64,000 nucleotides of DNA from a virus. Under the pieces are notes generated by a model. It did no database searches, was not told the origin of the DNA, and was given only the letters and a program-made list of their open reading frames with translations. Shown here piece after piece: positions 834-60,197 of the stretch (its first letter is position 1; each line of letters opens with the position of its first letter). The stretch is taken from the IMG/VR virus record IMGVR_UViG_3300015249_000001, positions 1 to 64,000 of that record. The stretch is one strand, 5' to 3'. The translations under genes and the position numbers were made by a program.

Positions 834-3800
834 TCATTTCCTACTGCCTGTCTTCAACCGTTGTAACCTGACCTGGGACTGGAAGCTAGGCACTTGGTCA
901 GGTTCCGCCATCGCGGTCAAGGTTGCCCCGCCCACATCTATGATGACCGGTTGCAGCGTTTGTGTCACTGTCCTGTCGGGCCTAGCCAACCCTGGGCTAG
1001 AGGGCTTGCTGATCCTTTGGGCCACTTCTGGGTCGAGTTGCAACGTACGCAACTTGTCCATGAAGTCCTTACCGTAAAGGTTGACCGCGCTGGCGGGTTG
1101 CATGTACTCACCATCTGAACCCCACAGGGGCACCTTGTCCTCTGTAGGTCCTCCAGGACCCTGGACTAGCCCACCTTGGGCATAGCCTATAAGCGTAGTA
1201 TCCTGTGGTTGTTCATTCTTCTTGCGCAGCTTATCTGCAAGGTCAGAGACTTGGGAGTCGTTAAGCGTAGGGTTATTTTCCTCACCCCCCGATGCCCGGT
1301 CTTGGGCGGTCTCGGCTTTATTAGTCCCACCTGTGGGCGTACCCCCTGGAAAACCATTCGCCAAGGTCTCCTTAAGTTTTTCCAAGGTAGTCGTCAAGTT
1401 ATTCACCGCATCTGTCAACTCTTGTTCGGCATACCTGGAAAATAGCAAGGAACTATTAAGTGAATTTACCTCATCTGTCAGGTTGCTGACAAAATTTGAC
1501 TGTTGGTTGATCTCTTGTGAATTGATAGCCAAGGCTGTATCCCTGGCTTGCTCAGTCAAGGATAGTGCCTCATCCTTGCTTATGCCCCCAGAGGACAACA
1601 AGTCCTTGATGTCGGACACTGCCCCTTTCGCAAGCTCCACCGACCCGGATGCCCCTGCGGCAGTGATCGTGTCCTGGATGTCAGAGACTGTCAGCTTCTC
1701 CCCAGAGATTTCACGCAGGCTCTTGTTGAAAAAATCCTCTAACTCCGCCTGCTTCTCATACAGGCTGGCAAGCTTTTCCCTTGCGGATTGCAAGCGTGAG
1801 GACGCATTCTGCAGGTTATTCTCCAAGGAAAGTGTACGGCTCTTTTGCTCCGTAAGTTTCTTATTGGTGTCCTGCAACTTGCTGTCCAACTCCTTGCGTT
1901 GGGCATTTTCAAGGTCAGCTATACTCTCTTCCCTAAGCGTCTTTTCCTTCCCAACCACCTCAGATAAAGCCTTATATGCGTCCGCCAAATCCTTAGACCC
2001 GGCCAATGCCTGTCTTCCCACATCCCCGGATAGCGCTTTCAATAAGCCTTCTGGACCGACATCTTTGGTATCGAATAGGGCTTCCTTGTCCACCTGTTTG
2101 CGTAAGGCTACGGCCAACAACTCTTTTTCAGAAGCAAGTTGCTTCTTTTGTATTTCATAAATTTCCTGGATAAGCTTGACCTCATCTTCCGTAGAATGCA
2201 CCTTGGTGTTGTGCAAGGTGGCTAGCCTGCCTTTCAGGTTTTTGACTTCAAGTTCCCCGACCAGGGACTGGCGTTGGGCTGCTTCCAGCTTCTGCTCCGT
2301 GGTTTCTTCCTCGACCGCAGAACTTGCCAACAAGTCTTTAGCCCGGACTAACCGCTCCTGGTGGGTTATGAGCTGTTTCTTTAAGTCCTCTAATCGGGCA
2401 TCAGTAACATTTCCATCAGCTACCTCCTTCTGGGTGTACCGGATAAAATCTTGCAGGCTCTTCTGCTCCTGCTCCACTACTTTCTTCTGCCCTTCCTTAA
2501 GCTGAGCTGCATGTTCGTTAGCTTTTTTACGGTCTTCAAGGCTTTTAGCAAAGTCTTGTTCAAAGTTCTCTGCCGTGGGCAGTTTCCTGTTTATGGGCAC
2601 TTCATTCTGGGATAGCGTCAACGCCTTTTGGAACTTTTCCAATCCTAGGTTAGCTTTATTTTTGGCCGCATCTGCCAATATTGAGGGGGAAAACAGCTTA
2701 CCCTCCTTAGTGATACTTAGGATAGCCTCTACCAACTGGGTTTGCCCATCCTCTATAGCTGAGAAGGTTTCTGCTTGCAGCCTTGCATAGCTAGGCCCCT
2801 GGATGCCGAGTGGATCCACTTGGAAAGCCTTGAAAAATTGCTCTATCTCTTTTTTCTTGTCCTCCAGCTTGTCCCCTTTGAGTTCTTTCTGGGACGTTTT
2901 AACAAACTCGGTCAGGGATAATTTACTGCCCTTCAATTCAAGCAACTTGTTAGCTTGCTCAATGTCCTGGGTACGTGTGTAAATAAGGCTGCGTTCTTTA
3001 TCGGTCAGCTTACCGAACGCATCAAGCAGCAGCTTTTCCTGCTCAGAAAGGCTACCTGCCTGCTGGTTTGAGAATGCTTTCTTGAGGTCTCCTAGCAATA
3101 CTTTCCGGACCCCTTCCGCCTCCTGCACAGCCGTATTGTACTTCTGCAAATCGGAAGCCAATTGGTTCCTGTCTACAGCCCCCTTAGCCAGCCCTGCTGA
3201 CTTTTCCAACTCTATGGCGACGTCTTCCAACGCTTGGCTACCGACAGCCACAACCTCATCAGAAGCTACCTTGAACAGCTCAGTAATCTTGTCCTTATTG
3301 GCATCGTTCAAATACACATCCAAGGCAGAATTGGCTTTGGAAATTGTGTCTTTAAAAGATTGGACTTGTTTGGCTTCCTCTTCTGCGGAGGCCTTCAAGG
3401 CGTCGAACGCTTCCTGCGCCTTTTGGTTCTCTATGCCAAGGGCTGCCAACGCCTTGGCCTTTTCCTCCTCGATGCGCTGCTTGTTGCCGAAAATATCCGT
3501 CTTGTCTATGACGTAGTTAATGCCTTCATAAAGACCATAAATAGCCAAAGACCAAGGGGCCAATCGGGTAACTATAAGGGTGCTGGCTACTTTTATGCCC
3601 TCCCATAACTTAGTGGCCGAAGTGGCGTAACCAAGGATAATACCGGCCACCGCCTTGGCCTTGGAGGTGATGCCACCGATCTTATCTTTTGCCAGCTGGG
3701 ACAGGGTGGCCAAGGTGCTGACAGTTTCCTCCGCCAAAATCACTCCATCAGGACCTACAGCCGAGGCAACCTTGCCCGCCCCCTTGGCTTTGGCTACCGC

Positions 3801-27916: not shown

Positions 27917-28100
27917 GGGTCGGGTTCCTTTTCTTTTCAGGGGTTGGGGTGGGTTACTTTTCTTTTTCAGGTGTAAAGGGGTAGTATAAGGTATGGCAGG
28001 GTGTAAGGTAAAAGGTTTGGAGGGGGGTTTGGGGGGGGAGGGGGTACAGTCATGGTGTGGCCCCCGGCCACCGGCCAATAAATCCCCCCTGGGCCACACA
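27917..28100 (-). other. C-rich/G-poor 5' leader tract (G-rich on + strand)
   Basis: + strand runs G6 (28022-27), G8 (28031-38), G5 (28040-44); on the sense (-) strand nearly G-free; contains AACCCCCCTCCA (complement of 28018-28029) shared with tract at 31402-31413. Confidence 0.6.
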
Positions 28101-29878: not shown

Positions 29879-30022
29879 AAATTAAGCAGAAACATGGGTT
29901 ATTTTTCCTGGCCCGGACATATCGCCGGGGCCTTTATCGAATTGGCGGTTGAAAATTACAGGGAAAATCTAGGTATCACACCTAACTTATAAAGTCAATC
30001 ATTCCCACTATACCTAGTATGC

Positions 30023-30050
30023 AAAAAAGGGGCGAAAAGCCCCTTTTTTT
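30023..30050. terminator. bidirectional rho-independent terminator
   Basis: AAAAAA-GGGGC-GAAAA-GCCCC-TTTTTTT. Confidence 0.75.
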
Positions 30051-30135
30051 CGTTTAATTTTCGTGCCAAAAATAATACCAAGTATATAGAAGTCCTTACC
30101 TTGCCCCCCCGCAAATTCCATGCCATAATAAAAAA

Positions 30136-30165
30136 TTGCAATCACAAAAAGTGACTGTCTATATA
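30136..30165 (+). promoter_or_regulatory. promoter-like element with dyad in spacer
   Basis: TTGCAA, 18-nt spacer containing TCACAAAAAGTGA, TATATA. Confidence 0.3.
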
Positions 30166-30222
30166 GGGTAAGGCGTTACACGTGCTTTTTCCCCAGAATC
30201 GCAGCAATTCAACAATCACTTT

Positions 30223-30234
30223 TTGTAATTACAA
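30223..30234. promoter_or_regulatory. dyad TTGTAATTACAA (exact)
   Basis: within 22-nt long form AATCACTTTTTGTAATTACAAA (30214-30235); no gene follows. Confidence 0.7.
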
Positions 30235-30240
30235 AACGAG

Positions 30241-30256
30241 AGTCAAATATTTGACT
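30241..30256. repeat. 16-bp perfect palindrome AGTCAAATATTTGACT
   Basis: read directly in AT-rich non-coding region. Confidence 0.85.
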
Positions 30257-30512
30257 AACTTAAAAGATATGCTGACTAGGCTCAAAAATCAATCAACTGC
30301 TTGAAAAACAAAATCTTTTAAAAAGTCAATAGGCGCGTGAAAAGGGCCTGAAATGGTCGGTTTTTACTTTCTGACATTAACGCTTTTCTGGTTTTTGAGA
30401 AAGCGGGCAGAAAAGTGTCATTGTCTAATAGAGCTTAATTTCAATAACTTATCGAAAAAGTTCACCCAACATAGACGTAGGTATCCTTACAGCTTGTAAG
30501 GCAAGTCTTGGC

Positions 30513-30540
30513 AAATTGTAAGTTACATAACTTACAATTT
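30513..30540. repeat. 28-bp inverted repeat (13-bp arms, 2-nt spacer)
   Basis: AAATTGTAAGTTA-CA-TAACTTACAATTT; arms contain TTGTAA half-sites related to the genome-wide dyad. Confidence 0.9.
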
Positions 30541-31011
30541 GTAAATTATTAGCTGGCACAGTAATTGCATACAAACCCCTGAAACGCACGTCGTTCTAAC
30601 ATATTCGACTAAAAAAATCAGTTGACGATTTACAAGGCACTGATATACAACAACAAATAGTTTAAAAAGCCACTGAGCTTTTTTGTGGTCAAAAACGTAA
30701 TGTGTGATGAACCGTGCATTACAGACCAAAAAAATCGGTTTTTTCTTATCAAACGCCGGAAGTCCGCCGGTTTTTGGCCGTTTTTAGCCGAAAATCGGGC
30801 AGGTGCTTGGCAAGGGGCATCGTATAAATACCCCTTTATTAGTACTTATTAGAGCTATATACCATTGACGAAAAAAAAAGTACTTCTTTACAGTGTAAAG
30901 TATGTGCCTGACTATTGACGCTTTTTTGGTCAAGGGGCTGTAAGTTATTGATTTTATTTTGAAGGCTCTACAAGGTAGATGTTAGCTTTTCTTCGATAAT
31001 AGCTAACCGCT

Positions 31012-31025
31012 ATTTGTATACAAAT
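31012..31025. repeat. 14-bp perfect palindrome ATTTGTATACAAAT
   Basis: zero-spacer variant of the TTGTA/TACAA dyad. Confidence 0.85.
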
Positions 31026-31112
31026 TGCCATGTACCTGCCAGCTATCTCAGAATTGCCCAGTTGGCAAAATGTAAGGTACGATAACTTTTTGAAATTGAA
31101 AGAAAAATATTT

Positions 31113-31124
31113 TTGTAATCACAA
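31113..31124. promoter_or_regulatory. dyad TTGTAATCACAA (1 mismatch), long form in reverse orientation
   Basis: 31112-31133 is the reverse complement of AATCACTTTTTGTGATTACAAA. Confidence 0.6.
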
Positions 31125-31149
31125 AAAGTGATTAATTGCCTTGAAAATA

Positions 31150-31158
31150 GGGGGGGGG
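31150..31158. repeat. G9 homopolymer
   Basis: counted from sequence (31150 g plus eight g at 31151-31158), intergenic. Confidence 0.8.
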
Positions 31159-31379
31159 TCAAAATTTTTTCTAATATTAGGAGGCCAAAAAGTATCAAAC
31201 CGTCGGAGATTTATACAATCTGCCCTCTCCTACGCATCGACATTTTTTGGCCTTCAAAATTTATATTTTTTTTCTCCATACTGCCACAACCTAGCCGTTA
31301 GACCCTTTAAAACTTTATTTTCACTACCCGCAAAACCGCATTCTACCTACAACCTCACCAAAACTACGCGGAAGTGGTA

Positions 31380-31700
31380 CACCAAGCTCCTGCCCCTTGT
31401 CAACCCCCCTCCAGCCGGCCCAAAAAATCCAGTCCCCCCAGCCCCCTCCCTAGAAAAACCCCCCAAAAAACCCAACCCTCCCATACCATTCCCCTTTTTC
31501 TGCAAATTGGTTGAAATGAACCAATTTTTGAAATTTCAAAAAAACAACGTTCAATTAACCTCTCCTTACCATTCCCCTTTCCTTGCCCATTTTCCTCCGA
31601 CCATTCCCCCTGTACTGCCCCCTTTTCCCAAAACCTCCAAAAACTACCCGGAAGCATTTGTCAAGTTTATCGTATATCCCCTTCCCTTAAACCTCCACAG
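31380..31700 (+). other. C-rich/G-poor tract on + strand
   Basis: runs of C5-C7 separated by A-runs; very few G; contains AACCCCCCTCCA at 31402-31413; upstream of gene 31976. Confidence 0.6.
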
Positions 31701-31748
31701 GAAGTGTTAATGGACTATACTTTATTTTTTGCCAAAATCTTCTGACGG

Positions 31749-31777
31749 TTGACAAAAGTAATACCCAAGGGTACTAT
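31749..31777 (+). promoter_or_regulatory. sigma70-like promoter
   Basis: TTGACA (31749-54), 17-nt spacer, TACTAT (31772-77). Confidence 0.55.
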
Positions 31778-31975
31778 GCCCAGCAAGCCTAGTCTGACGG
31801 ATACCCCAAACGGTATTACAGTATATTTTACATATGTATTTGTAAGCTTTTGATTATTATAGAAAGTGCTAGTGACCATTTTTGTTCAATCCGTCGAACT
31901 TGCTTTACTCCGTGCCAATACTTTCCAAAATCCGGCACAACCGACCAAACTATTATCAACCAACAGGAAACAATA

Positions 31976-33742
31976 ATGACCACAGAACCTGAAATTCACC
32001 CTAAAGAACCAATGCAGAACTTAAAGCCAAGGTATGCCAACCTCCCGGAAGCATCCTATCCGGGAGGCTACCAGCCAACCTTGTACATAGCGCCAAGGCC
32101 AGCCTTGTACGACCACAGGGCGGAATCCACCACCCCCCTCCCCCATGTGCCGTCGCCCCCTCCCAACCCCTTGTGGGGACCCGTGTTCGACTGGGTGCAG
32201 CGGCAGGCGCCCTTCAACTACACGCCTGCCCACACCCACGCCTTCGGGGCGTCGGGGCCGGAAGCGCCAAGGCTGCTGGGGAGGGCGTCCAGCCTGCCGC
32301 ACGGCTACGACCACGCAGGGGCGCTGCCGTGCGGGGCGTTGAAGTTCTTTGATGTCCTTGCCTTCTTGGGGCAAACCGGGATGCCGCACGCACAGGCCAG
32401 GGTGCGCACGACGGGCATTGAGTTCGGCATGGCGGTGGCGGAATTGCCGGTGGCTTCAAGACTGACAGAAAACTTCAGTGGCAAGGCGCACAAGTGTGCG
32501 AAGCCGCCACGGAAGCGGGTGCTGAAAGTGTGCAGGTACACCTTGACGTGCGAAAGGTTCCTGCGCTTCTTGTGGGCGAAGCCGCCAAGGGACTGGGAAG
32601 GCAACGCCAAGCCGTTGGGGAGGCCGGCCAGCACGATGTCCTTGCAAGAACTTTCGGAAGCGTACCGGAAGCCGTTGCAGCGCCTGCCGGAAGGCCATTC
32701 CGCAAGGTATGTCCCACTTGACGAGCTGTCCTTGCCGGAAGAGGTGCGGCAATATGCCTGGGAGGCCCATGCCTGGATGGCGTCCGAAGGCATGGAAATC
32801 GAGGGTTCCCCGGAAGAGGACAGGTTGAAGCGCGGCGTGGACGTGCAGCCCGACCTTGTGGATTGCCGTGGCGGCAACCTGCGCCTTGCCGGGAAGCTGT
32901 TCCTGAACCCCCTGCCCTACCCCGCCAGCATGGCCTACACGTCATGGGAGGCGATGGCGGAATACAATTCCCTTGTCCCGGTGCTGTTCAAGGCGGCAGG
33001 GCACCACACGGGGATCTGGGAGGCCCACAGGACGGCATGGTCAGAAACCCACTTGGGTTACAAGGCAGTGTTGAATGGCGGCAGCGGCAACCTGCCGGAA
33101 GAGTGGAGGGCCAGGAGGTTCTCCAGCCGCAGCCCCTTCCGGGATGACCCTAAGTTTGTGGCCCAGGTCAACCAAAACCTCACCCTCTCCACGGGCACCC
33201 TTGTCGGTGCGGGCTTCTGGCACAAGGGGCCTTGGAAACTTGGCTTCGGGCAAGGCAGGCTGTATTGGAAGCCGGGGCATGTCAACAAGGTGGTCAGGAA
33301 AATCATGGAAAACTTCGGGCTGCCCCAATATGAAAAGCGCATTTCGTCCCTGCCGATGTCAGTGGAAGACCCTGCCGCGTACCTTGCGCATGGCTGGGCG
33401 GAAGACCCGTTCAGGCGGGACGCCACGGGCAAGGCGGCCAAGGCGTACCACTACCTCAAGGACGGCTGCGTGAGCCTGTCGCAGAGGCCGTCATGCAAGG
33501 GGCACCGGGAGAAGCTGCCTGCCGTGCACCCCATCGTGTACGCGCTCCTGTTCGGCCACAGCAGCCGGAAGCAGGAAGTGCTGACCTACCTGCTGCTGCC
33601 CACGGAAGAAGGCCACAGGGCGCTGGGCTTGCCCCCCTCGGACTATTACGACTTCTCTTGCATAGGGGCGCTTTACAAGGCGTCCCTTGGGTGGGCCGGC
33701 GAGGTGGAGGAAGGCGAGGTGCGCTGGGTTGAGCAGCAGTAA
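31976..33742 (+). CDS. large orphan protein
   Basis: 588 aa from ATG 31976 (AGGAAACAATA upstream); GC-rich; no motif recognised. Confidence 0.6.
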   Translation: MTTEPEIHPKEPMQNLKPRYANLPEASYPGGYQPTLYIAPRPALYDHRAESTTPLPHVPSPPPNPLWGPVFDWVQRQAPFNYTPAHTHAFGASGPEAPRLLGRASSLPHGYDHAGALPCGALKFFDVLAFLGQTGMPHAQARVRTTGIEFGMAVAELPVASRLTENFSGKAHKCAKPPRKRVLKVCRYTLTCERFLRFLWAKPPRDWEGNAKPLGRPASTMSLQELSEAYRKPLQRLPEGHSARYVPLDELSLPEEVRQYAWEAHAWMASEGMEIEGSPEEDRLKRGVDVQPDLVDCRGGNLRLAGKLFLNPLPYPASMAYTSWEAMAEYNSLVPVLFKAAGHHTGIWEAHRTAWSETHLGYKAVLNGGSGNLPEEWRARRFSSRSPFRDDPKFVAQVNQNLTLSTGTLVGAGFWHKGPWKLGFGQGRLYWKPGHVNKVVRKIMENFGLPQYEKRISSLPMSVEDPAAYLAHGWAEDPFRRDATGKAAKAYHYLKDGCVSLSQRPSCKGHREKLPAVHPIVYALLFGHSSRKQEVLTYLLLPTEEGHRALGLPPSDYYDFSCIGALYKASLGWAGEVEEGEVRWVEQQ

Positions 33743-33749
33743 TCACTTT

Positions 33750-33761
33750 TTGTCATTACAA
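33750..33761. promoter_or_regulatory. dyad TTGTCATTACAA (1 mismatch)
   Basis: long form 33741-33762, starts at the stop codon of 31976-33742 and precedes promoter 33772. Confidence 0.6.
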
Positions 33762-33771
33762 AAACTGTGCC

Positions 33772-33800
33772 TTGACGGCAACACTGTCAAGGTGTAAAGT
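33772..33800 (+). promoter_or_regulatory. sigma70-like promoter
   Basis: TTGACG, 17-nt spacer (contains CCTTGAC..GTCAAGG dyad), TAAAGT. Confidence 0.5.
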
Positions 33801-33806
33801 ATGGCT

Positions 33807-33929
33807 GTGCCCCCATCCAGGGGGCACTTACAGGGGCTATCGGTATGCCGGTGCGGGCGAAATACCGATAGCCCCAAGGTTATCGCTCCCCCTTGTGGCG
33901 GCCCCGCACAGCCGCCCCTGGGGGTTTTT
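33807..33929 (+). ncRNA. candidate structured leader / short RNA (three hairpins, last is a terminator)
   Basis: GTGCCCCC-5nt-GGGGGCAC (33807-27); 14-bp perfect stem 33833-46/33862-75; GC hairpin + TTTTT (33888-33929). Confidence 0.4.
33888..33929 (+). terminator. intrinsic terminator-like hairpin
   Basis: CCCCC..GGCGGC-8nt-GCCGCC..GGGGG followed by TTTTT, ending 1 nt before ATG 33930. Confidence 0.55.
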
Positions 33930-34331
33930 ATGGGGGATAAGATGGGTAATTTTTGTAACTTTATGTTGGGGGTGTCCATTGCCGCCGTGCTGGCTGCCCT
34001 TGGGTCCCTGGTGCGGGTCTTGGCGACCAGGGACCCAAAATTCAGGCGCGTCCCTGAGGCCCAGGACGCGCCCAAGTCTGTCCTTGCCCAGTGCAAGGAA
34101 GGCTACTCCCCCGCCCCGTACGACCCAGTCAGGTTCGTGGACATGGAAACGGTGGAGAAGGCGGAGAAGCCGCCATACCCTTATGACGGGTATGTCAAGC
34201 AGGTGGTGGGGTACAAGGTCGACAAGGGCCAACCCTTGGTGGACGTGGCCTTAAGGGAAAGTTTGCGGCAGCCCGGTGAGTTCCGCAGGAGGATGTGCGG
34301 CATGGCACATTGGGATGGCGGCGGCGAGTGA
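33930..34331 (+). CDS. small membrane protein
   Basis: 133 aa from ATG 33930 (MGDKMGNFCNFMLGVSIAAVLAALGSLVRVL, one TM); upstream 43 codons of track ORF coincide with RNA hairpins. Confidence 0.5.
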   Translation: MGDKMGNFCNFMLGVSIAAVLAALGSLVRVLATRDPKFRRVPEAQDAPKSVLAQCKEGYSPAPYDPVRFVDMETVEKAEKPPYPYDGYVKQVVGYKVDKGQPLVDVALRESLRQPGEFRRRMCGMAHWDGGGE

Positions 34332-37216: not shown

Positions 37217-37539
37217 TGGTGCCCATGAACCCGATCACCATCCCGGTGCCCACCATCGTCGAGTGGGCGCAGTACGGCATCACCCCAGGGGTCATGATGT
37301 TCATGATGGTCGCTGGCTGGCTTTTCACCGTGGCCATCGTGTGCAGGATGTTCATCCTGTTCGTCAAATGGCACACCTCGGAAATGGGCAAGGTGGGGGC
37401 GGCACATGCGGTCGAGCGGGACAACTTCTACAACAAGCTTGACGCCTTGCGGGACTCCCATGACAGGGAAATATCCAGGCTGTACGACCTGATCGGGGAG
37501 CTTTCTGACAGGGTGGCACGGGCCTTGGATAATGCTTGA
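37213..37539 (+). CDS. membrane protein with C-terminal coiled coil
   Basis: 108 aa; ATGA overlap; TM GVMMFMMVAGWLFTVAIVCRMFILF. Confidence 0.55.
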   Translation: MMVPMNPITIPVPTIVEWAQYGITPGVMMFMMVAGWLFTVAIVCRMFILFVKWHTSEMGKVGAAHAVERDNFYNKLDALRDSHDREISRLYDLIGELSDRVARALDNA

Positions 37540-37565
37540 CATATTGTAATTACAAAAGTTAATAT
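37536..37565 (+). promoter_or_regulatory. sigma70-like promoter with dyad in the spacer
   Basis: TTGACA (overlaps stop codon), 18-nt spacer containing TTGTAATTACAA (37544-55), TAATAT. Confidence 0.55.
37544..37555. promoter_or_regulatory. dyad TTGTAATTACAA (exact)
   Basis: inside the 18-nt spacer of promoter 37536-37565. Confidence 0.7.
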
Positions 37566-37571
37566 TGATCT

Positions 37572-37671
37572 GCCAGCGGAAAGCAGTGGGGGCTTTCCGC
37601 TGGCGATTTCAAATCACCACCAACCCCGGAGATGCAAGGCGCCCCTCGTAGGCCTTGCACCGGGGTTTTTT
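37572..37671 (+). ncRNA. candidate structured leader / short RNA (two hairpins, second is a terminator)
   Basis: 13-bp perfect stem 37572-84/37592-604; CCCCGG..TGCAAGGC-11nt-GCCTTGCA..CCGGGG + T6 (37624-37671). Confidence 0.4.
37624..37671 (+). terminator. intrinsic terminator
   Basis: two-tier GC stem followed by TTTTTT ending at the base before ATG 37672. Confidence 0.6.
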
Positions 37672-37866
37672 ATGGGGAAAATTATGGGGCCTACTTTTTG
37701 GAATTTCTTCTGGCAGGCACACCTTCCGGGTGTGCTGGGGCTGTGTGGTATCTTCAATGTGCTGTTTTTTAAAGGCAGCCCGATAGGGTTGGGTTTTTCC
37801 TTGCTAGGCTTCTACTTGTCCGTCCTGGAACTCAAGTCCTTGATGGGCAAGTGCAGGCAGGGGTAG
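37672..37866 (+). CDS. small two-TM membrane protein
   Basis: 64 aa; MGKIMGPTFWNFFW... N-terminus resembles that of 33930 gene; no SD (starts right after terminator T-run). Confidence 0.4.
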   Translation: MGKIMGPTFWNFFWQAHLPGVLGLCGIFNVLFFKGSPIGLGFSLLGFYLSVLELKSLMGKCRQG

Positions 37867-41028: not shown

Positions 41029-41052
41029 CAGAGAAAATTACGAGTGGGACTA

Positions 41053-41094
41053 GGGGCGGCTGTGCAGTTTTGTGGGTGCTGCACCCGCCCCTTT
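41053..41094 (+). terminator. terminator-like GC hairpin
   Basis: GGGGCGG..TGCAG-loop-CTGCA..CCGCCCC then TTTG; follows gene 40789-41028. Confidence 0.45.
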
Positions 41095-41125: not shown

Positions 41126-41155
41126 TTGACAAGATGTAAAGAATGATGCTATACT
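41126..41155 (+). promoter_or_regulatory. sigma70-like promoter
   Basis: TTGACA, 18-nt spacer, TATACT. Confidence 0.6.
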
Positions 41156-41161
41156 ATTATC

Positions 41162-41218
41162 TCAAGTTGGGTTGTTGACTTGTCCTCCTACTGACCTGCC
41201 CTAAGGCGGGTCTTTTTT
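41162..41218 (+). ncRNA. candidate ~55-nt attenuated transcript
   Basis: region between promoter 41126-55 and terminator 41193-41218. Confidence 0.3.
41193..41218 (+). terminator. intrinsic terminator
   Basis: GACCTGCC-CTAA-GGCGGGTC (one G-U) followed by TTTTTT. Confidence 0.6.
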
Positions 41219-41239
41219 GGGTAGGTGAATAATCACTTT

Positions 41240-41251
41240 TTGTAATTACAA
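41240..41251. promoter_or_regulatory. dyad TTGTAATTACAA (exact)
   Basis: long form 41231-41252; 16 nt before ATG 41268. Confidence 0.7.
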
Positions 41252-41267
41252 AACTTAGGAGAAGGCA

Positions 41268-41534
41268 ATGGCCTACTGTGCATACAATGGGGTCAACCAC
41301 CTGTACTACCGGGCGGACAACCTGGTTGACTTGGTGAAGTTGTTCACCAAGTTCCACATAGACGGAAAGACTGGCAAGACTGTGGTTAAAGTGGCAGGCT
41401 ATGCAGCCTGTCCCGGCACACGCTACAACATGAAGGAATGGACAGTGGGCGAGGTAGAAATCGACCTTGTTAAGCTTGTCCTTAGGGATATTAAGCGGGG
41501 GGATTACAAGATCACCCTATACAAGCAACTTTAA
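41268..41534 (+). CDS. hypothetical protein
   Basis: 88 aa; full cassette (dyad 41240-51, AGGAGAAGGCA) before ATG. Confidence 0.65.
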   Translation: MAYCAYNGVNHLYYRADNLVDLVKLFTKFHIDGKTGKTVVKVAGYAACPGTRYNMKEWTVGEVEIDLVKLVLRDIKRGDYKITLYKQL

Positions 41535-42393: not shown

Positions 42394-43852
42394 AAAGTTG
42401 CAAGCGCTCACCCCAGAACAAGAGGCCGCAATGCCGGGGTGGGCTGAGAAGTGGATAAACATAGGGCTTTGCACCGATGAGGCGGATTGGGAGGTGTCAA
42501 AGCAGGCCATAGCTGAGTGTTATGCCCTTGCTGGGCTGGAACCCCCTAAAAAGTACATCAAGGTGCAATCCCCCTTGGTGCTGGCGTTGGCCGCCCCAAC
42601 TGCTGATTTCATCTTGGGGTCCCTGCCCCAGGTCAGCCCTGTGGCCTTGGCAAGGGTTGGCGCTGTCAAAGAAGCCGTCAGCGGTGCCGTCAGCGCCGGC
42701 GTCAGGGATGCAGTCAACAACGCCGTCAGCGGTGCCGTCAGCGGCACCGTCAGGGATGCCGTCAGCGGTGCCGTCAGCGGTGCCGTCTTGTATGCCGTCA
42801 GCGGTGCCGTCAGCGGTGCCGTCTTGTATGCCGTCAGCGGTGCCGTCAGGGATGCCGTCAGGGATGCCGTCAGGGATGCCATCGTGGGTGCCGTCAGCGG
42901 TGCCGTCAGGGGTACCGTCATGGGTGCCGTCAGGGATGCCGTCAGGGGTGCCGTCAGCGGTGCCGTCAGGGATGCCGTCAGGGATGCCGTCAGGGATGCC
43001 GTGAGGGGTGCCGTCAGGGATGCCGTTAGCGGTGCCGTTGAGGGTGCCGTTTGGGATGCCACCGCTGATACCGTCAACGGTGCCGTGGGGGATGCCGTCA
43101 GGGATGCCGTTTGGGTTGCCGTCAACGGTGCCGTGGAGGGTGCCGTCTGGGATGCCGTTTTGGGCACCACCAAGGAGGGTGGGGTTAAAAACCCACTGGG
43201 CAAGCATATACAGGGAAATTGGGCCTATTACCTTGGTGGGCAGTCTTGGGCGGGCTGGAACTCCTTTGAATCCTTCTTCTTGGAAGTATGCCACTTAGGG
43301 ATACCGGATGAAATGAAGGCAAGGGCGGAGGCCTACAGGAAAGCCCAGTCTTCCTCTTTTTGGTGGTGGCCCCACAAGGATTTTGTGATGGTGTGCAACC
43401 GCCCCGTCAAGGTTAAACTAGAGGAAGGGCGCCTGCATTGTGCCGATGGTTTGGCCTTGCAGTGGCCAGATGGTTGGGGGATAGCTTCTTGGAAGGGCAC
43501 AGTCATACCTAACCAGTGGGTGTTGGGAGAAAAGCCCACAGCAGCAGAGTTGTTGCATTGGGAAAATGTTGAGCAAAGGCGGGCAGGGTTTGAATTGGTC
43601 GGGTGGGACAAGCTGTTATCCGAGCTGGACTACACCTTGGTTGATTCACACCCTAACCCGGAAATAGGAGATCTGATTGAGATAGATTTGCCGGACAGCG
43701 GCAAGGAACGTTTTATCAAGGTGATGTGCGGTACGGGAAGGCAGTTCGTCTTGCCCGTACCGCAGGAAATCCGCACCGTCATAGAGGCACAGGCATGGTC
43801 TTATGGGTTTGACCACCCACAAGATTTTTTATTACCAGAAGTGAGGACTTAA
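42383..43852 (+). CDS. A-V-x-x tetrapeptide-repeat protein
   Basis: 489 aa from ATG 42383 (dyad 42357-68 + AGGAGAAGGAA); 42 consecutive 4-residue units; globular Trp-rich C-terminal domain. Confidence 0.7.
   Translation: MGIKKLQALTPEQEAAMPGWAEKWINIGLCTDEADWEVSKQAIAECYALAGLEPPKKYIKVQSPLVLALAAPTADFILGSLPQVSPVALARVGAVKEAVSGAVSAGVRDAVNNAVSGAVSGTVRDAVSGAVSGAVLYAVSGAVSGAVLYAVSGAVRDAVRDAVRDAIVGAVSGAVRGTVMGAVRDAVRGAVSGAVRDAVRDAVRDAVRGAVRDAVSGAVEGAVWDATADTVNGAVGDAVRDAVWVAVNGAVEGAVWDAVLGTTKEGGVKNPLGKHIQGNWAYYLGGQSWAGWNSFESFFLEVCHLGIPDEMKARAEAYRKAQSSSFWWWPHKDFVMVCNRPVKVKLEEGRLHCADGLALQWPDGWGIASWKGTVIPNQWVLGEKPTAAELLHWENVEQRRAGFELVGWDKLLSELDYTLVDSHPNPEIGDLIEIDLPDSGKERFIKVMCGTGRQFVLPVPQEIRTVIEAQAWSYGFDHPQDFLLPEVRT
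42662..43165 (+). repeat. 42 tandem 12-nt units (consensus GCCGTCAGCGGT / GCCGTCAGGGAT)
   Basis: counted codon by codon: AVKE AVSG AVSA GVRD ... AVWD AVLG; in frame within 42383-43852. Confidence 0.9.
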
Positions 43853-47051: not shown

Positions 47052-47081
47052 TTGACAAACTGTACAGTACTGTGCTACAAT
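47052..47081 (+). promoter_or_regulatory. sigma70-like promoter
   Basis: TTGACA, 18-nt spacer, TACAAT. Confidence 0.6.
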
Positions 47082-47087
47082 ATTAAC

Positions 47088-47127
47088 TGGTAAAAATTTG
47101 GGCCCGTCCATCGGACGGGTTATTTTT
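47088..47127 (+). ncRNA. candidate ~40-nt attenuated transcript
   Basis: region between promoter 47052-81 and terminator 47103-27. Confidence 0.3.
47103..47127 (+). terminator. intrinsic terminator
   Basis: CCCGTCC-ATC-GGACGGG followed by TTATTTTT. Confidence 0.65.
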
Positions 47128-47148
47128 GCCGGAATAAATAATCACTTT

Positions 47149-47160
47149 TTGTAATTACAA
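47149..47160. promoter_or_regulatory. dyad TTGTAATTACAA (exact)
   Basis: long form 47140-47161; 15 nt before ATG 47176 (GHKL ATPase). Confidence 0.7.
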
Positions 47161-47175
47161 ATTTGGAGAAAGACA

Positions 47176-48867
47176 ATGGCATTACCCGCAAACACAGGAA
47201 ATTTGGTGAAGTATTTGGAAAAAAGCTTCACCAACAAGACCACCTTCTTGACAGAAATGATGCAGAACGCAAGGAGGGCAAAGGCAACCTATGTTGCATT
47301 TAACCTCGATGAAGAAAATAACAAGCTAGTGGTCACGGACGACGGTGTAGGGATCACTGAGAAATCCCTGCTGTTCACCATCGCGGAGTCTGGCTGGGGC
47401 AACATGGAGGAGACGGCGGACGTGGTAAAAAACGAAGACCCGTTCGGTGTCGGCTTCCTGTCTGTATTGTTCGCTTGTAAAACTATCCTTGTGGAATCCC
47501 CAGGGTTCTCCCTGTTCGGCGAGACTAGCAGGATACTTGGTGAAAATGTGTTCCATAGGGAGGACTCCAGCGATGTGGGGGCAGGCACAAGGATAGAACT
47601 GCGTGGGTTGAAGGCGGACAAGTCCACTTTCCTCAAAGTGGTCAAGGAAGCCAGTAGGGGTTTCCCTATTGAAGTCCTTTTTGATGGCGTCCCAATGGAG
47701 CGCCCTTACGCCCTTGATATTGGCAAGTTTGAGGAGTGCCCAATGGGGCAGTGGTGGTGGAGGGAGAAGGACTACTCAAGATACCCACAGGTAGGATACT
47801 TTATCCAGGGGTTGCCAGTAGGGGTCAACACCTACAGCGCTACATCCCATCCACAGATAGTCGTCCACCTGGATTGTAAGCAGTATTCAGCCAGGGTACC
47901 CGACCGGGCGGTGCTGAATGATGCAGAGGCGGCTGCTAAAGCTGTACTTTCCTTCTATGAGCAACAAGTCAAGGAGCTGTTCATTAGGATGCTCGAAAAT
48001 AGCCCCTTAGAACTTTTACGGCATAGGGATACCCTCTATAGACACGGTTTGCTGCACCTGCTAAACACGGTACAGGCTTTGCCCAAAGACTTGTTGTGTT
48101 CTGTGCAAGACTTGCCTTATATGACAGAGGATTCCTGTGACCGAGATTGGCTAGTAACCAAAAAAGAGAGCTTTACCAGAGAAGACATCGCGTCAGGGCG
48201 AGTCAAGGTGTTCCACTTTAGCGATGACTATGAAATGGACGGCAGGCAGGACACAGCAGCCCGCTTGGCCTGGATAAGGCAAGCCCATGACACGGACAGC
48301 TCCTGTGACTATTTAGTCTATGACGGTGGCCTGGACTCAGGGCATTGGCTATACGACTACCTATTGGATGAGGACAGGATGGAAATGTCTGTGCTAGTGG
48401 GTAGTCAGACTTTCAAAGGCAAGTACCGCGGGGATACCTTGGGCACTTATGACTTGGTTATCTGTAAGTCCTACACCTTGCGTATGGAGTACGATTGGGA
48501 AGATGACCCCCGCAAGGAAGGGTTCCTTATGGATGTGCGGATTGATGATGAACCTTTGTTCTTGGCCAGTGAAGGGAATCTCTATACCCCTGGGAGAACC
48601 CACAGGCAAGACCTGTACAGCCTAATTAGGCAGATGGACAAGTTTTACAGCCAGGGTGACCAGCCCTTTGATGATGACCTAGTGTCCAAGGAGCTGACAA
48701 AGCTTAGCCAGTACATTTCCTTAAATTCTATGCAAGACCCTGCCCAAGCGTTGCTGTCTTTGATAGGCGGCCTGGACTTGTCCTTGTACCCAGGACTATT
48801 TGGCAAAGAGTTCAAGGTGGGGTTAAGTGGGGAAGGGCGACCTGTAGTCAGTGTGTTGAACACATAA
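47176..48867 (+). CDS. GHKL-family (Hsp90/MutL/MORC-type) ATPase
   Basis: 563 aa; Bergerat-fold motifs EMMQNARRA (motif I Asn), TDDGVGI (DxGxG), DPFGVGFLS (G-loop); exact cassette upstream. Confidence 0.7.
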   Translation: MALPANTGNLVKYLEKSFTNKTTFLTEMMQNARRAKATYVAFNLDEENNKLVVTDDGVGITEKSLLFTIAESGWGNMEETADVVKNEDPFGVGFLSVLFACKTILVESPGFSLFGETSRILGENVFHREDSSDVGAGTRIELRGLKADKSTFLKVVKEASRGFPIEVLFDGVPMERPYALDIGKFEECPMGQWWWREKDYSRYPQVGYFIQGLPVGVNTYSATSHPQIVVHLDCKQYSARVPDRAVLNDAEAAAKAVLSFYEQQVKELFIRMLENSPLELLRHRDTLYRHGLLHLLNTVQALPKDLLCSVQDLPYMTEDSCDRDWLVTKKESFTREDIASGRVKVFHFSDDYEMDGRQDTAARLAWIRQAHDTDSSCDYLVYDGGLDSGHWLYDYLLDEDRMEMSVLVGSQTFKGKYRGDTLGTYDLVICKSYTLRMEYDWEDDPRKEGFLMDVRIDDEPLFLASEGNLYTPGRTHRQDLYSLIRQMDKFYSQGDQPFDDDLVSKELTKLSQYISLNSMQDPAQALLSLIGGLDLSLYPGLFGKEFKVGLSGEGRPVVSVLNT

Positions 48868-59924: not shown

Positions 59925-60197
59925 ATGAACCAAAAAGAATTAGTTGATGTAGTTACAAAAACGTCAGGATACCCTAGGACCCAAGTGGAAAGTACCTTGT
60001 ACTCCTTGCTCAAAGCTATTGAAAGGGAAGTGGCCTCCGGAGGTGTAGTACGGCTGGTCAATTTCGGTACTTTCAAGACATTGCAGTATCAAGAGAGGAA
60101 CGCCATAAACCCGGTCACAGGTGCGCCTGTCATAAGGCCTGCAAAGAAAGTACCTAAGTTTTCTGCAGGCAAAAAGTTCAAGGACGCAATGGGCTAG
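59925..60197 (+). CDS. HU/IHF-family DNA-binding protein
   Basis: 90 aa; MNQKELV...VRLVNFGTFKTLQYQERNAINPVTGAPVIRPAKKVPKFSAGKKFKDA is a classic HU fold sequence. Confidence 0.85.
   Translation: MNQKELVDVVTKTSGYPRTQVESTLYSLLKAIEREVASGGVVRLVNFGTFKTLQYQERNAINPVTGAPVIRPAKKVPKFSAGKKFKDAMG
59947..59958. promoter_or_regulatory. dyad-like ATGTAGTTACAA (1 mismatch)
   Basis: inside codons 8-11 of the HU gene; may be coincidental. Confidence 0.35.

Follow-up and report, generated by a model that had tools for sequence, protein, structure and literature searches.

The window analysed here, 64,000 nucleotides (nt) in length, comprises positions 1 to 64,000 of the IMG/VR virus record IMGVR_UViG_3300015249_000001 and represents most of the 81.6-kb genome of an uncultivated tailed phage. 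Past the stop codon (33740-42) of a rightward gene for a 588-residue protein, for which searches returned no homologues (an ORFan), lies a compact element that we call module 1 (M1). It is made up of a candidate sigma-70-type promoter (P1), two hairpins (H1 and H2) and a terminator hairpin with a T tract (T1, about 150 nt beyond that stop codon), and it leads directly into an open reading frame (ORF) for a protein with one transmembrane (TM) helix. An earlier note on this DNA had described these parts, and every one of them, down to the ATG at 33930, is found where the note had placed it, with the leader folding as claimed. The element is real, and the interpretation given in the note is partly right; its assignments to specific regulatory families are unsupported. 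We read M1 as a composite early-region control cassette, one of a family, in a lytic-type phage that is apparently dependent on host RNA polymerase, and we would put the probability of this reading, which is drawn from sequence, at roughly one half. In narrower terms, M1 appears to be a promoter-proximal terminator gate or short-RNA unit, since any RNA polymerase must pass T1 to reach the downstream gene. The coordinates of the features are collected in Table 1.

For the 135-nt leader the folding energy is -74.9 kcal/mol (z = -3.79), a value that none of 200 shuffled sequences equalled. In a sliding structure scan of 31.8-42 kb, the segments 33760-33879 (z -6.2) and 37560-37679 (z -6.3) were among the top three peaks. 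The highest peak, 34000-34119 (z -6.6), falls within the ORF adjoining T1, which holds a perfect 13-bp hairpin at 34000-34038 (folding free energy, dG, -28.7) and a second strong hairpin at 34042-34075 (dG -20); on the minus strand the latter is followed by TTTT. Seven perfect hairpins of at least 11 bp occur in the window where 0.3 would be expected, H2 and the hairpin of a second module (M2) among them. T1, with its five closing G-C pairs and the T5 tract behind them, has the GC-rich hairpin and U-tract of an intrinsic terminator, and in an energy-based scan of the 64 kb it and its M2 counterpart, T2, were the strongest terminator candidates of the plus strand. By prediction, an RNA of about 120 nt ends at T1 and all rightward transcription is gated there.

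The position of T1 relative to the downstream gene was defined with a coding score, the codon-usage log-odds trained on 16 confident genes. The segment 33801-33929 scores -0.25 per codon, which marks it as non-coding, and 33930-34331 scores 0.38-0.39 per codon, equal to known genes, with the onset of the coding signal at about 33921-33945. The ORF is real and the leader is non-coding. A longer, 176-residue ORF from an ATG at 33801 was rejected as coding, its extension scoring -0.25 per codon and its ATG lying upstream of the predicted transcription start. Considering that the coding signal begins at about 33921-33945 and that the leader is non-coding, there is no space for a promoter between T1 and the gene; as the terminator abuts the coding region, downstream expression needs read-through. 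The logic by which the note had made expression of this gene conditional on an override of the terminator is sound, and the missing promoter space is the strongest argument for gating by T1, whether P1 is active or not.

The same gene had been said to have no Shine-Dalgarno (SD) sequence, which is not the case. An SD-like GGGGGA is present at 33932-37, 4 nt upstream of an in-frame ATG at 33942 (GGGGGA-TAAG-ATGG), and M2 has a counterpart at ATG 37684 (GGGGAA-AATT-ATGG). The contexts of both ATGs fit GGAGAAAGACAATGG, the canonical start region of the phage, which occurs in four exact copies against 0.18 expected with up to two mismatches. The start is likelier at ATG 33942 than at 33930, and the first ATG may merely be the end of the U-tract plus the SD of the second. 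The 133-residue protein has no homologue among 5.8 billion proteins and no family match, and the TM helix is the sole confident part of its AlphaFold model (predicted local distance difference test, pLDDT, 45.6). At 129-133 residues it lies outside the type I toxin class (below about 60 residues) to which the note had likened it, and no credible antisense unit was found at the locus: the sole antisense promoter-like site, running from 33978 to 33949, matches at 9/12 positions and lacks the T at position 1 of its -10 hexamer.

Support for P1 comes from its setting. H1 starts exactly 7 nt after the -10 hexamer, and the same spacing is seen in modules 2 and 3; the 12-mer GTGTAAAGTATG, which covers the P1 -10, recurs at 30888-30899; there are 7 terminators preceded at 30-200 nt by a promoter-like site, where 2.26 would be expected (P = 0.006); and the promoters of the other modules, P2-P4, are stronger. 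The P1 spacer contains a 7-bp inverted repeat, CCTTGAC/GTCAAGG (33770-76 / 33786-92). At the predicted 5' end of the transcript, H1 would serve as a 5'-terminal stabiliser.

A second module with the same order of parts, which the note had placed at 37536-37866, is confirmed, as is the similarity of the two junction sequences, which share 27 nt at 81% identity, with the likeness extending to about 55 nt. The M2 leader is likewise structured (z -4.09). When the two modules are folded side by side, a comparison that the note had suggested, their leaders differ (a single 13-bp hairpin as opposed to one of 8 bp and one of 14 bp), and the only common parts are a palindrome, described below, and the junction of about 55 nt with its G-run, U-tract and ATGGGG(G)A..ATGGG..TTTTTG.AA.TT. 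The possible ORF after T2 has a weak coding signal (0.04-0.18 per codon) and is omitted by the public gene call; its N-terminus resembles that of the M1 ORF, yet BLASTP gives no alignment between the two. Modules 3 and 4 (M3 and M4) are paralogous; in the A3 alignment their columns are on average 76% identical. Their promoter-to-terminator spans are short (41126-41218 in M3 and 47052-47127 in M4), the terminator lying only 40-57 nt past the promoter, and across M1-M4 the terminator is found 42-133 nt downstream of the -10. The single-stranded UCCUCCUACU of M3 is anti-SD-like; the corresponding 12-nt single-stranded stretch of M1 is AAGGUUAUCGCU. Counted from the -35, TGTA(A/C) occupies the same register in the spacers of P2, P3 and P4. 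Ahead of the terminator, modules 1-4 were not found to have any leader structure or sequence in common. By these predictions, M1 is one of four start-then-stop cassettes, whose role is probably to gate early genes or to release small RNAs.

Table 1. Predicted features of the four modules, the palindrome and the 30-kb region (positions are those of the window)
Feature	Position	Strand	Description
M1, candidate sigma-70-type promoter P1	33772-33800 (-35 33772-77, -10 33795-800)	+	TTGACG-17 nt-TAAAGT; predicted start ~33807
M1, hairpin H1	33807-33827	+	perfect 8-bp hairpin, 5-nt loop, arms GTGCCCCC/GGGGGCAC; dG -16.7
M1, hairpin H2	arms 33833-46 / 33862-75	+	14 perfect bp and distal 3-bp helix; dG -30.5
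M1, intrinsic-terminator hairpin T1	33888-33924; T5 tract 33925-29	+	CCCCC..GGCGGC-loop-GCCGCC..GGGGG; dG -23.5 kcal/mol
M1, ORF	33930-34331	+	133 residues (129 from ATG 33942); one N-terminal TM helix; ORFan
M1, palindrome copy and 5' flank	33741-33764	+	TAATCACT-TTTTGTCATTACAAAA; overlaps stop codon of 588-residue ORFan gene, ends 8 bp before -35
M2, promoter P2	from 37536 (module 37536-37671)	+	TTGACA-18-TAATAT (10/12); palindrome 37542-57 fills spacer; predicted start ~37570
M2, 5' hairpin	37572-84 / 37592-604	+	perfect 13-bp arms; then 18-nt spacer
M2, terminator T2	37624-65; T6 tract 37666-71	+	followed by T6; dG -25.0
M2, possible ORF after T2	37672-37866	+	64 residues (60 from ATG 37684); two TM
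M3, promoter P3	41126-55 (module 41126-41270)	+	TTGACA-18-(TG)TATACT, 11/12, extended -10; predicted start ~41162
M3, 5' hairpin	41163-82	+	8 bp with G-U pairs; then single-stranded UCCUCCUACU
M3, terminator	41193-212; T6 tract 41213-18	+	followed by T6
M3, after terminator	palindrome 41238-53; ATG 41268	+	AATAATCAC and palindrome, SD, ATG
M4, promoter P4	47052-81 (module 47052-47178)	+	TTGACA-18-TACAAT, 11/12; predicted start ~47088
M4, terminator	47101-21; T5 tract 47123-27	+	followed by T5; no 5' hairpin
M4, after terminator	palindrome 47147-62; ATG 47176	+	AATAATCAC and palindrome, GGAGAAAGACA, ATG
Palindrome TTTTGTAATTACAAAA, example sites	28102, 28214, 30221, 31111, 33748, 37542, 41238, 44237, 47147, 50274
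Bidirectional terminator	30023-30049		within the 30000-31850 region
Perfect 13-bp palindrome	30512-30541		within the 30000-31850 region
C-rich direct repeats	31419-31625		within the 30000-31850 region

The palindrome common to the modules, TTTTGTAATTACAAAA, is a perfect inverted repeat of 16 bp that is present in 23 copies in the window (up to three mismatches) against 0.37 expected. Its copies often have an oriented 5' flank, AATCAC(T), matching the direction of the gene; they are concentrated in the rightward early and middle region (28-62 kb) and are near-absent from the structural genes. For rightward genes between 28 and 50 kb, nine copies or more are placed 0-4 nt ahead of the conserved SD (GGAGAAAGACAATGG). 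All four modules carry it; in M1 and M2 it overlaps or adjoins the promoter, and in M3 and M4 it follows the terminator. Folded as RNA, it would be a hairpin of only -1.3 kcal/mol, which speaks against that role and favours a DNA site for a dimeric protein; TTTTGTAATTACAAAA is probably an operator for a DNA-binding protein of the phage. Over its 12-bp core, the palindrome matches exactly the right half-site of Escherichia coli relO, which is bound by the ribbon-helix-helix repressor RelB (PMC2812701). We take this match as a lead and not as a test, a RelB-like protein having gone undetected here. The palindrome-plus-SD cassette was also considered as a sigma-70 promoter and rejected, since the only hexamer in it that resembles a -10 would share bases with the ATG. 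The gene at 59925-60197 codes for a DNA-binding protein of the HU/IHF family (PF00216, E 2e-23) and has a degenerate copy of the palindrome (59945-59960) in its 5' end. In their many copies spread over the genome, in short intergenic spaces by gene starts and oriented with transcription, the palindromes (and only these, not the modules) resemble the stoperators of Cluster A mycobacteriophages (PMC9283540, PMC6550527). The stoperators, however, are asymmetric, measure 13-14 bp and bind a monomeric immunity repressor in temperate phages, whereas the site here is a perfect 16-bp palindrome in a phage where integrase and repressor were not detected.

Of the known phage cassettes, the PeSL cassettes of T4-like phages offer the likeness of repeated, partly conserved units that flank small ORFans and in which a strong early promoter of the sigma-70 type is combined with a stem-loop terminator, an SD and a start codon (PMC2839356, PMC4122927). 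The repetition has its counterpart here: M3 and M4 are paralogues at 76%, M1 and M2 have the palindrome and the junction in common, and the flanking genes are ORFans. The PeSL stem-loop, however, usually sits between the -35 and -10 or over the -10, so that the cassette's own transcripts escape it (PMC2839356). Here the terminator stands past the start site, so the transcripts of the cassette itself would meet it; the P2 spacer contains only the weak 16-bp palindrome, which is an additional part.

Taken together, the parts of M1 suggest a mechanism. P1 would start an RNA whose first bases fold into the very stable 5'-terminal H1, and then into H2. About 120 nt on, the polymerase would meet T1, the U-tract of which runs into the ribosome-binding region of the next gene. 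T1 would stop read-through from the 588-residue gene along with most P1 transcripts. The RNA released, about 120 nt in length, would have both of its ends protected, and the block from 33942 to about 37539, with the one-TM protein first, would be expressed only from polymerases that read through. Such read-through could be plain leak, or the work of a general, non-sequence-specific phage antiterminator made earlier; gp39 and P7 (PMC3351154, PMC6624301) are precedents for general phage antiterminators. A phage protein would modulate the promoter by way of the adjacent 16-bp palindrome, acting as a DNA operator, and the short RNA may also act in trans. If the cassettes work in this way, the staging of early genes would require nothing beyond host promoters, self-closing terminators and one palindromic operator, in an uncultivated phage in which profile searches detect no polymerase or sigma factor. 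The cassettes are also compact, sequence-defined parts, with promoter, 5' stabiliser hairpin and strong terminator within 125 bp, and the palindrome beside a conserved ribosome-binding cassette is a clear handle for finding the regulator. Promoter-proximal termination has already been seen in phage transcriptomes, and the gain is a well-delimited orphan example, not a principle.

Any regulated read-through must be factor-driven, as no alternative antiterminator fold of substance was found: when the leaders were folded with the 3' arm of the terminator withheld, M2-M4 gave no competitor and M1 a single weak hairpin, at about -10 kcal/mol where T1 reaches -23.5. Together with the absence of an Rfam match, this takes out riboswitch and attenuator models, including the riboswitch-like leader entertained in the note. 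The factor-driven precedent that the note had named, Q/qut-type control, has real points of likeness. The lambda pR'-tR' unit (6S RNA), controlled by Q, and the Pseudomonas aeruginosa PalpB-tB unit, controlled by AlpA, also have a constitutive sigma-70 promoter, a short terminated RNA and a block led by a small membrane protein (PMC9371919), and the M2 palindrome sits between -35 and -10 just as the Q-binding element (QBE) of lambda and the AlpA-binding element (ABE) do. Control of this type needs a factor-binding promoter element, a sigma-dependent pause and a dedicated protein (PMC9371919), and of these three only the factor-binding element has a possible counterpart, in M2. Inspection by eye gave no TAnnnT-like hexamer at +1 to +10 of M1 or M2 and only a minimal nAnnnT (CAAGTT) in M3; there is no convincing -10-like pause element. 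For a Q/AlpA-family protein there was no Pfam or PHROG match in the ORFs scanned or in the contig's precomputed annotations, although a novel fold is possible. Unlike the late and lysis genes under Q or AlpA, the downstream genes here are early-type small ORFans and genes of nucleotide metabolism (MazG, DUF4326 and similar). The palindrome, moreover, also occurs at about 20 non-promoter sites, and the system is found four times in this phage, not once.

Several observations weigh against M1 as a control cassette and are best considered together. The consensus match of P1, 9/12, is at chance level when taken alone, as 12 such sites were found in the region against 7.6 +/- 3 expected. Apart from the 5' hairpin of M3, with its G-U pairs, all stems are purely Watson-Crick, which fits DNA-level palindromes equally well, and DNA-level roles of the stems are possible. 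In M1 and M2 the palindrome precedes the promoter or sits inside it, in M3 and M4 it comes after the terminator, and no single simple model accommodates all four. Homologous loci for a covariation analysis of the modules were not found in the collections searched, and covariation support is absent. The Pfam and PHROG searches identified neither an antiterminator nor a palindrome-binding protein.

Among the alternatives, the unit may be a gene for a trans-acting small RNA (sRNA) of about 120 nt, with its own promoter, 5' hairpin, single-stranded AAGGUUAUCGCU and terminator with U-tail; its position before a gene would then be incidental, and M2-M4 would be further sRNA genes. The layout of promoter, 5' hairpin, spacer and terminator plus U-tail does recur in M1-M3, and the M3 spacer, UCCUCCUACU, resembles an anti-SD. 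Experimental parallels exist in Pseudomonas phage 201phi2-1, where ONT-cappable-seq mapped short transcripts ending just past their starts and sRNAs derived from 5' untranslated regions (UTRs), the origin of most of its candidate sRNAs (PMC11512511). Those units, like the ones here, combine a start with a near-immediate terminator upstream of a gene, yield RNAs shorter than 250 nt and occur several times per genome. They differ in having been mapped experimentally, whereas the cassettes here are predicted, and there is no sequence relationship; here, in addition, the units go together with a palindrome spread over the whole genome, and terminator and start region are in direct contact. We consider the sRNA explanation unlikely, since conservation and an Rfam match are both absent and it leaves unexplained why, in two modules with a common junction sequence, the terminator abuts the start region. 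Nor did the three short RNAs have antisense targets beyond chance inside the phage. The best complementarity, a 14-mer (E 0.023), pairs T1 loop and 3' arm (33906-33919) with an arm of another GC-rich, terminator-like hairpin (41052-41093) directly upstream of module 3, and is probably compositional.

In an ordinary arrangement, T1 would be the terminator or insulator of the 588-residue gene, H1 and H2 its 3'-UTR stabilisers and P1 a chance match, and the downstream genes would be served by leak. The 9/12 match of P1, among sites little in excess of expectation, and the nearness of T1 to the upstream stop codon are what one would then see. We nevertheless regard this arrangement as improbable, because the same order recurs with far better promoters in M2 (10/12), M3 and M4 (both 11/12, one with an extended -10), in three modules the first base of a hairpin coincides with the predicted +1, P1 is one of several promoters that have the operator palindrome at their flank, and GTGTAAAGTATG over the -10 recurs at 30888.

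A bolder extension of the control-cassette reading, which we hold to be a long shot, is that the four cassettes and the 23-copy palindrome form one undescribed temporal-control grammar, for a phage that relies on the host polymerase. Each strong host-type promoter would be deliberately shut by a terminator of its own, and a phage protein that binds the palindrome, or else a cis-acting 5' hairpin, would open or replace it; whichever of the two is at work would confer terminator bypass, either promoter-specific or genome-wide. If that were so, insulating terminators with private bypass would split the early region into sequentially released blocks.

Alternatively, the T1 and T2 hairpins could act in translation, hiding the SD-like G-run and setting the choice between in-frame starts (33930/33942 and 37672/37684), with holin/antiholin-like dual products. 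The start junction is, after all, the sole part conserved between M1 and M2, and in both it reads G-run, 5-6 nt, AUG, GGG-x-x, AUG, GGG; a Lys separates the two Mets, and a TM segment comes next. The sdi structure of lambda S is similar in that a C-run/G-run hairpin lies directly 5' of two close in-frame AUGs of a small membrane protein; lambda S carries tCCCCttatTGGGGGtaagacATGaagATG. The hairpins here are, however, far more stable (-23 to -25 kcal/mol) than that of lambda and are followed by U5-6 tracts typical of terminators, the endolysin gene is not adjacent but 16-20 kb distant, the coding signal of the 64-residue ORF is weak, and the first ATG is readable as the U-tract end plus the SD of the second. 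There were no PHROG matches to support a holin identity, and a translational role seems to us very doubtful.

HK022 putL and putR have a common two-stem structure, in an RNA of about 70 nt. We think it highly improbable that a put-like hairpin, transcribed from P1, modifies the polymerase so that only P1 transcripts pass T1 (an insulator with private bypass), for while M1-M3 each have a hairpin at the extreme 5' end directly before the terminator, and M1, like the early operon of HK022, combines promoter-proximal stem-loops and then terminators with a dedicated antiterminator protein not found, the hairpins vary in number, size, loop and sequence (8 and 14 bp in M1, 13 bp in M2, 8 bp with G-U in M3, none in M4) and read-through RNA from upstream would carry identical ones. 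These differences between the leaders, which share no structure or sequence, speak against the put-type analogy drawn in the note and equally against lambda N/nut boxA and boxB, for which only M1 has anything similar (the H1 pentaloop hairpin and a CGCUC stretch) and M2-M4 nothing.

Searches for relatives and regulators covered several collections. Rfam, run on the whole window at the gathering threshold and on both modules in E-value mode, gave chance-level matches only, and there were no tRNA or tmRNA genes. No DNA match was found among phage records. IMG/VR held no relatives of the window proteins, terminase matches reaching only 26%, and no copy of the 22-mer searched for; a metagenome scan with a 19-mer returned chance single matches and one window fragment with a single mismatch. 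The phage sequence itself is present in identical form in ENA ERZ27267776, in Logan SRR6823971 and in a JGI sample, and as the assemblies are 100% identical across the modules they offer no natural variation. Pfam and PHROG searches of about 50 ORFs, together with the precomputed annotations, gave no helix-turn-helix or ribbon-helix-helix protein, no Q, N, sigma factor or RNA polymerase, and only the HU-family protein mentioned above.

A homologue search with a 122-residue protein produced one distant relative, L048, along with eight unrelated loci. The primase of L048 is 37% identical, and the locus is non-syntenic at modules 1 and 2. L048 carries a triplicated cassette of its own (1724-1850, ~2800-2907 and 3529-3633), in which an 18-bp palindrome, TTAGCTTCACGAAGCTAA, is followed by about 30 nt of conserved AT-rich sequence and by a GC-rich hairpin of 15 bp, the copies of which differ by compensatory changes; after the hairpin come CCCGGAGAAATAAAATG and GGAGAAATAAAATG. 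Elsewhere in L048 (12396-12491), a promoter TTGACT-17-TATGAT has its -10 inside a 13-bp palindrome. Since L048 has such a cassette of its own, the order palindrome, promoter region, hairpin and SD may be a habit of the lineage.

Beyond the modules, the minus strand from 0.4 to 22 kb holds the structural genes (tape measure, portal, S49 protease), the large terminase gene lies at 24.1 kb and the endolysin gene at 53.7 kb. Gene orientation and GC skew switch in an AT-rich (39% GC), non-coding region at 30.0-31.85 kb, which is possibly an origin or early control region; besides the features listed in Table 1, it has several promoter-like sites, a G10 run and TTTTGTAATTACAAAA palindrome copies in both orientations. 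The gene for the 588-residue ORFan is alone among the rightward early genes in having no terminator ahead of it. From 31.85 kb, small rightward ORFans are followed by genes for MazG, an anti-restriction protein, primase, helicase and the HU-like protein, and past the right end of the window by those for SSB, PolA, a methylase and a RecD-like helicase. Profile searches over about 80 of the 81.6 kb recognised no integrase, repressor, RNA polymerase or sigma factor; the phage has the look of a lytic type that relies on the host polymerase. The closest isolated phages have primases of only 25% identity and provide no context.

Three further features lie at a distance from the modules. The RecD-like helicase gene past the right end of the window (L065, 16268-18766) is split by an intein with a LAGLIDADG domain and is adjoined by the genes for PolA, SSB and a DNA methylase. 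The Gly-zipper/DUF6745 gene at 42.7-43.0 kb has internal direct repeats of 80-85% (42686-43007), and a G-rich run, GGAGGGGGGTTTGGGGGGGGAGGGGG, is present at 28020-28045, beside a divergent promoter region at 28.1 kb.

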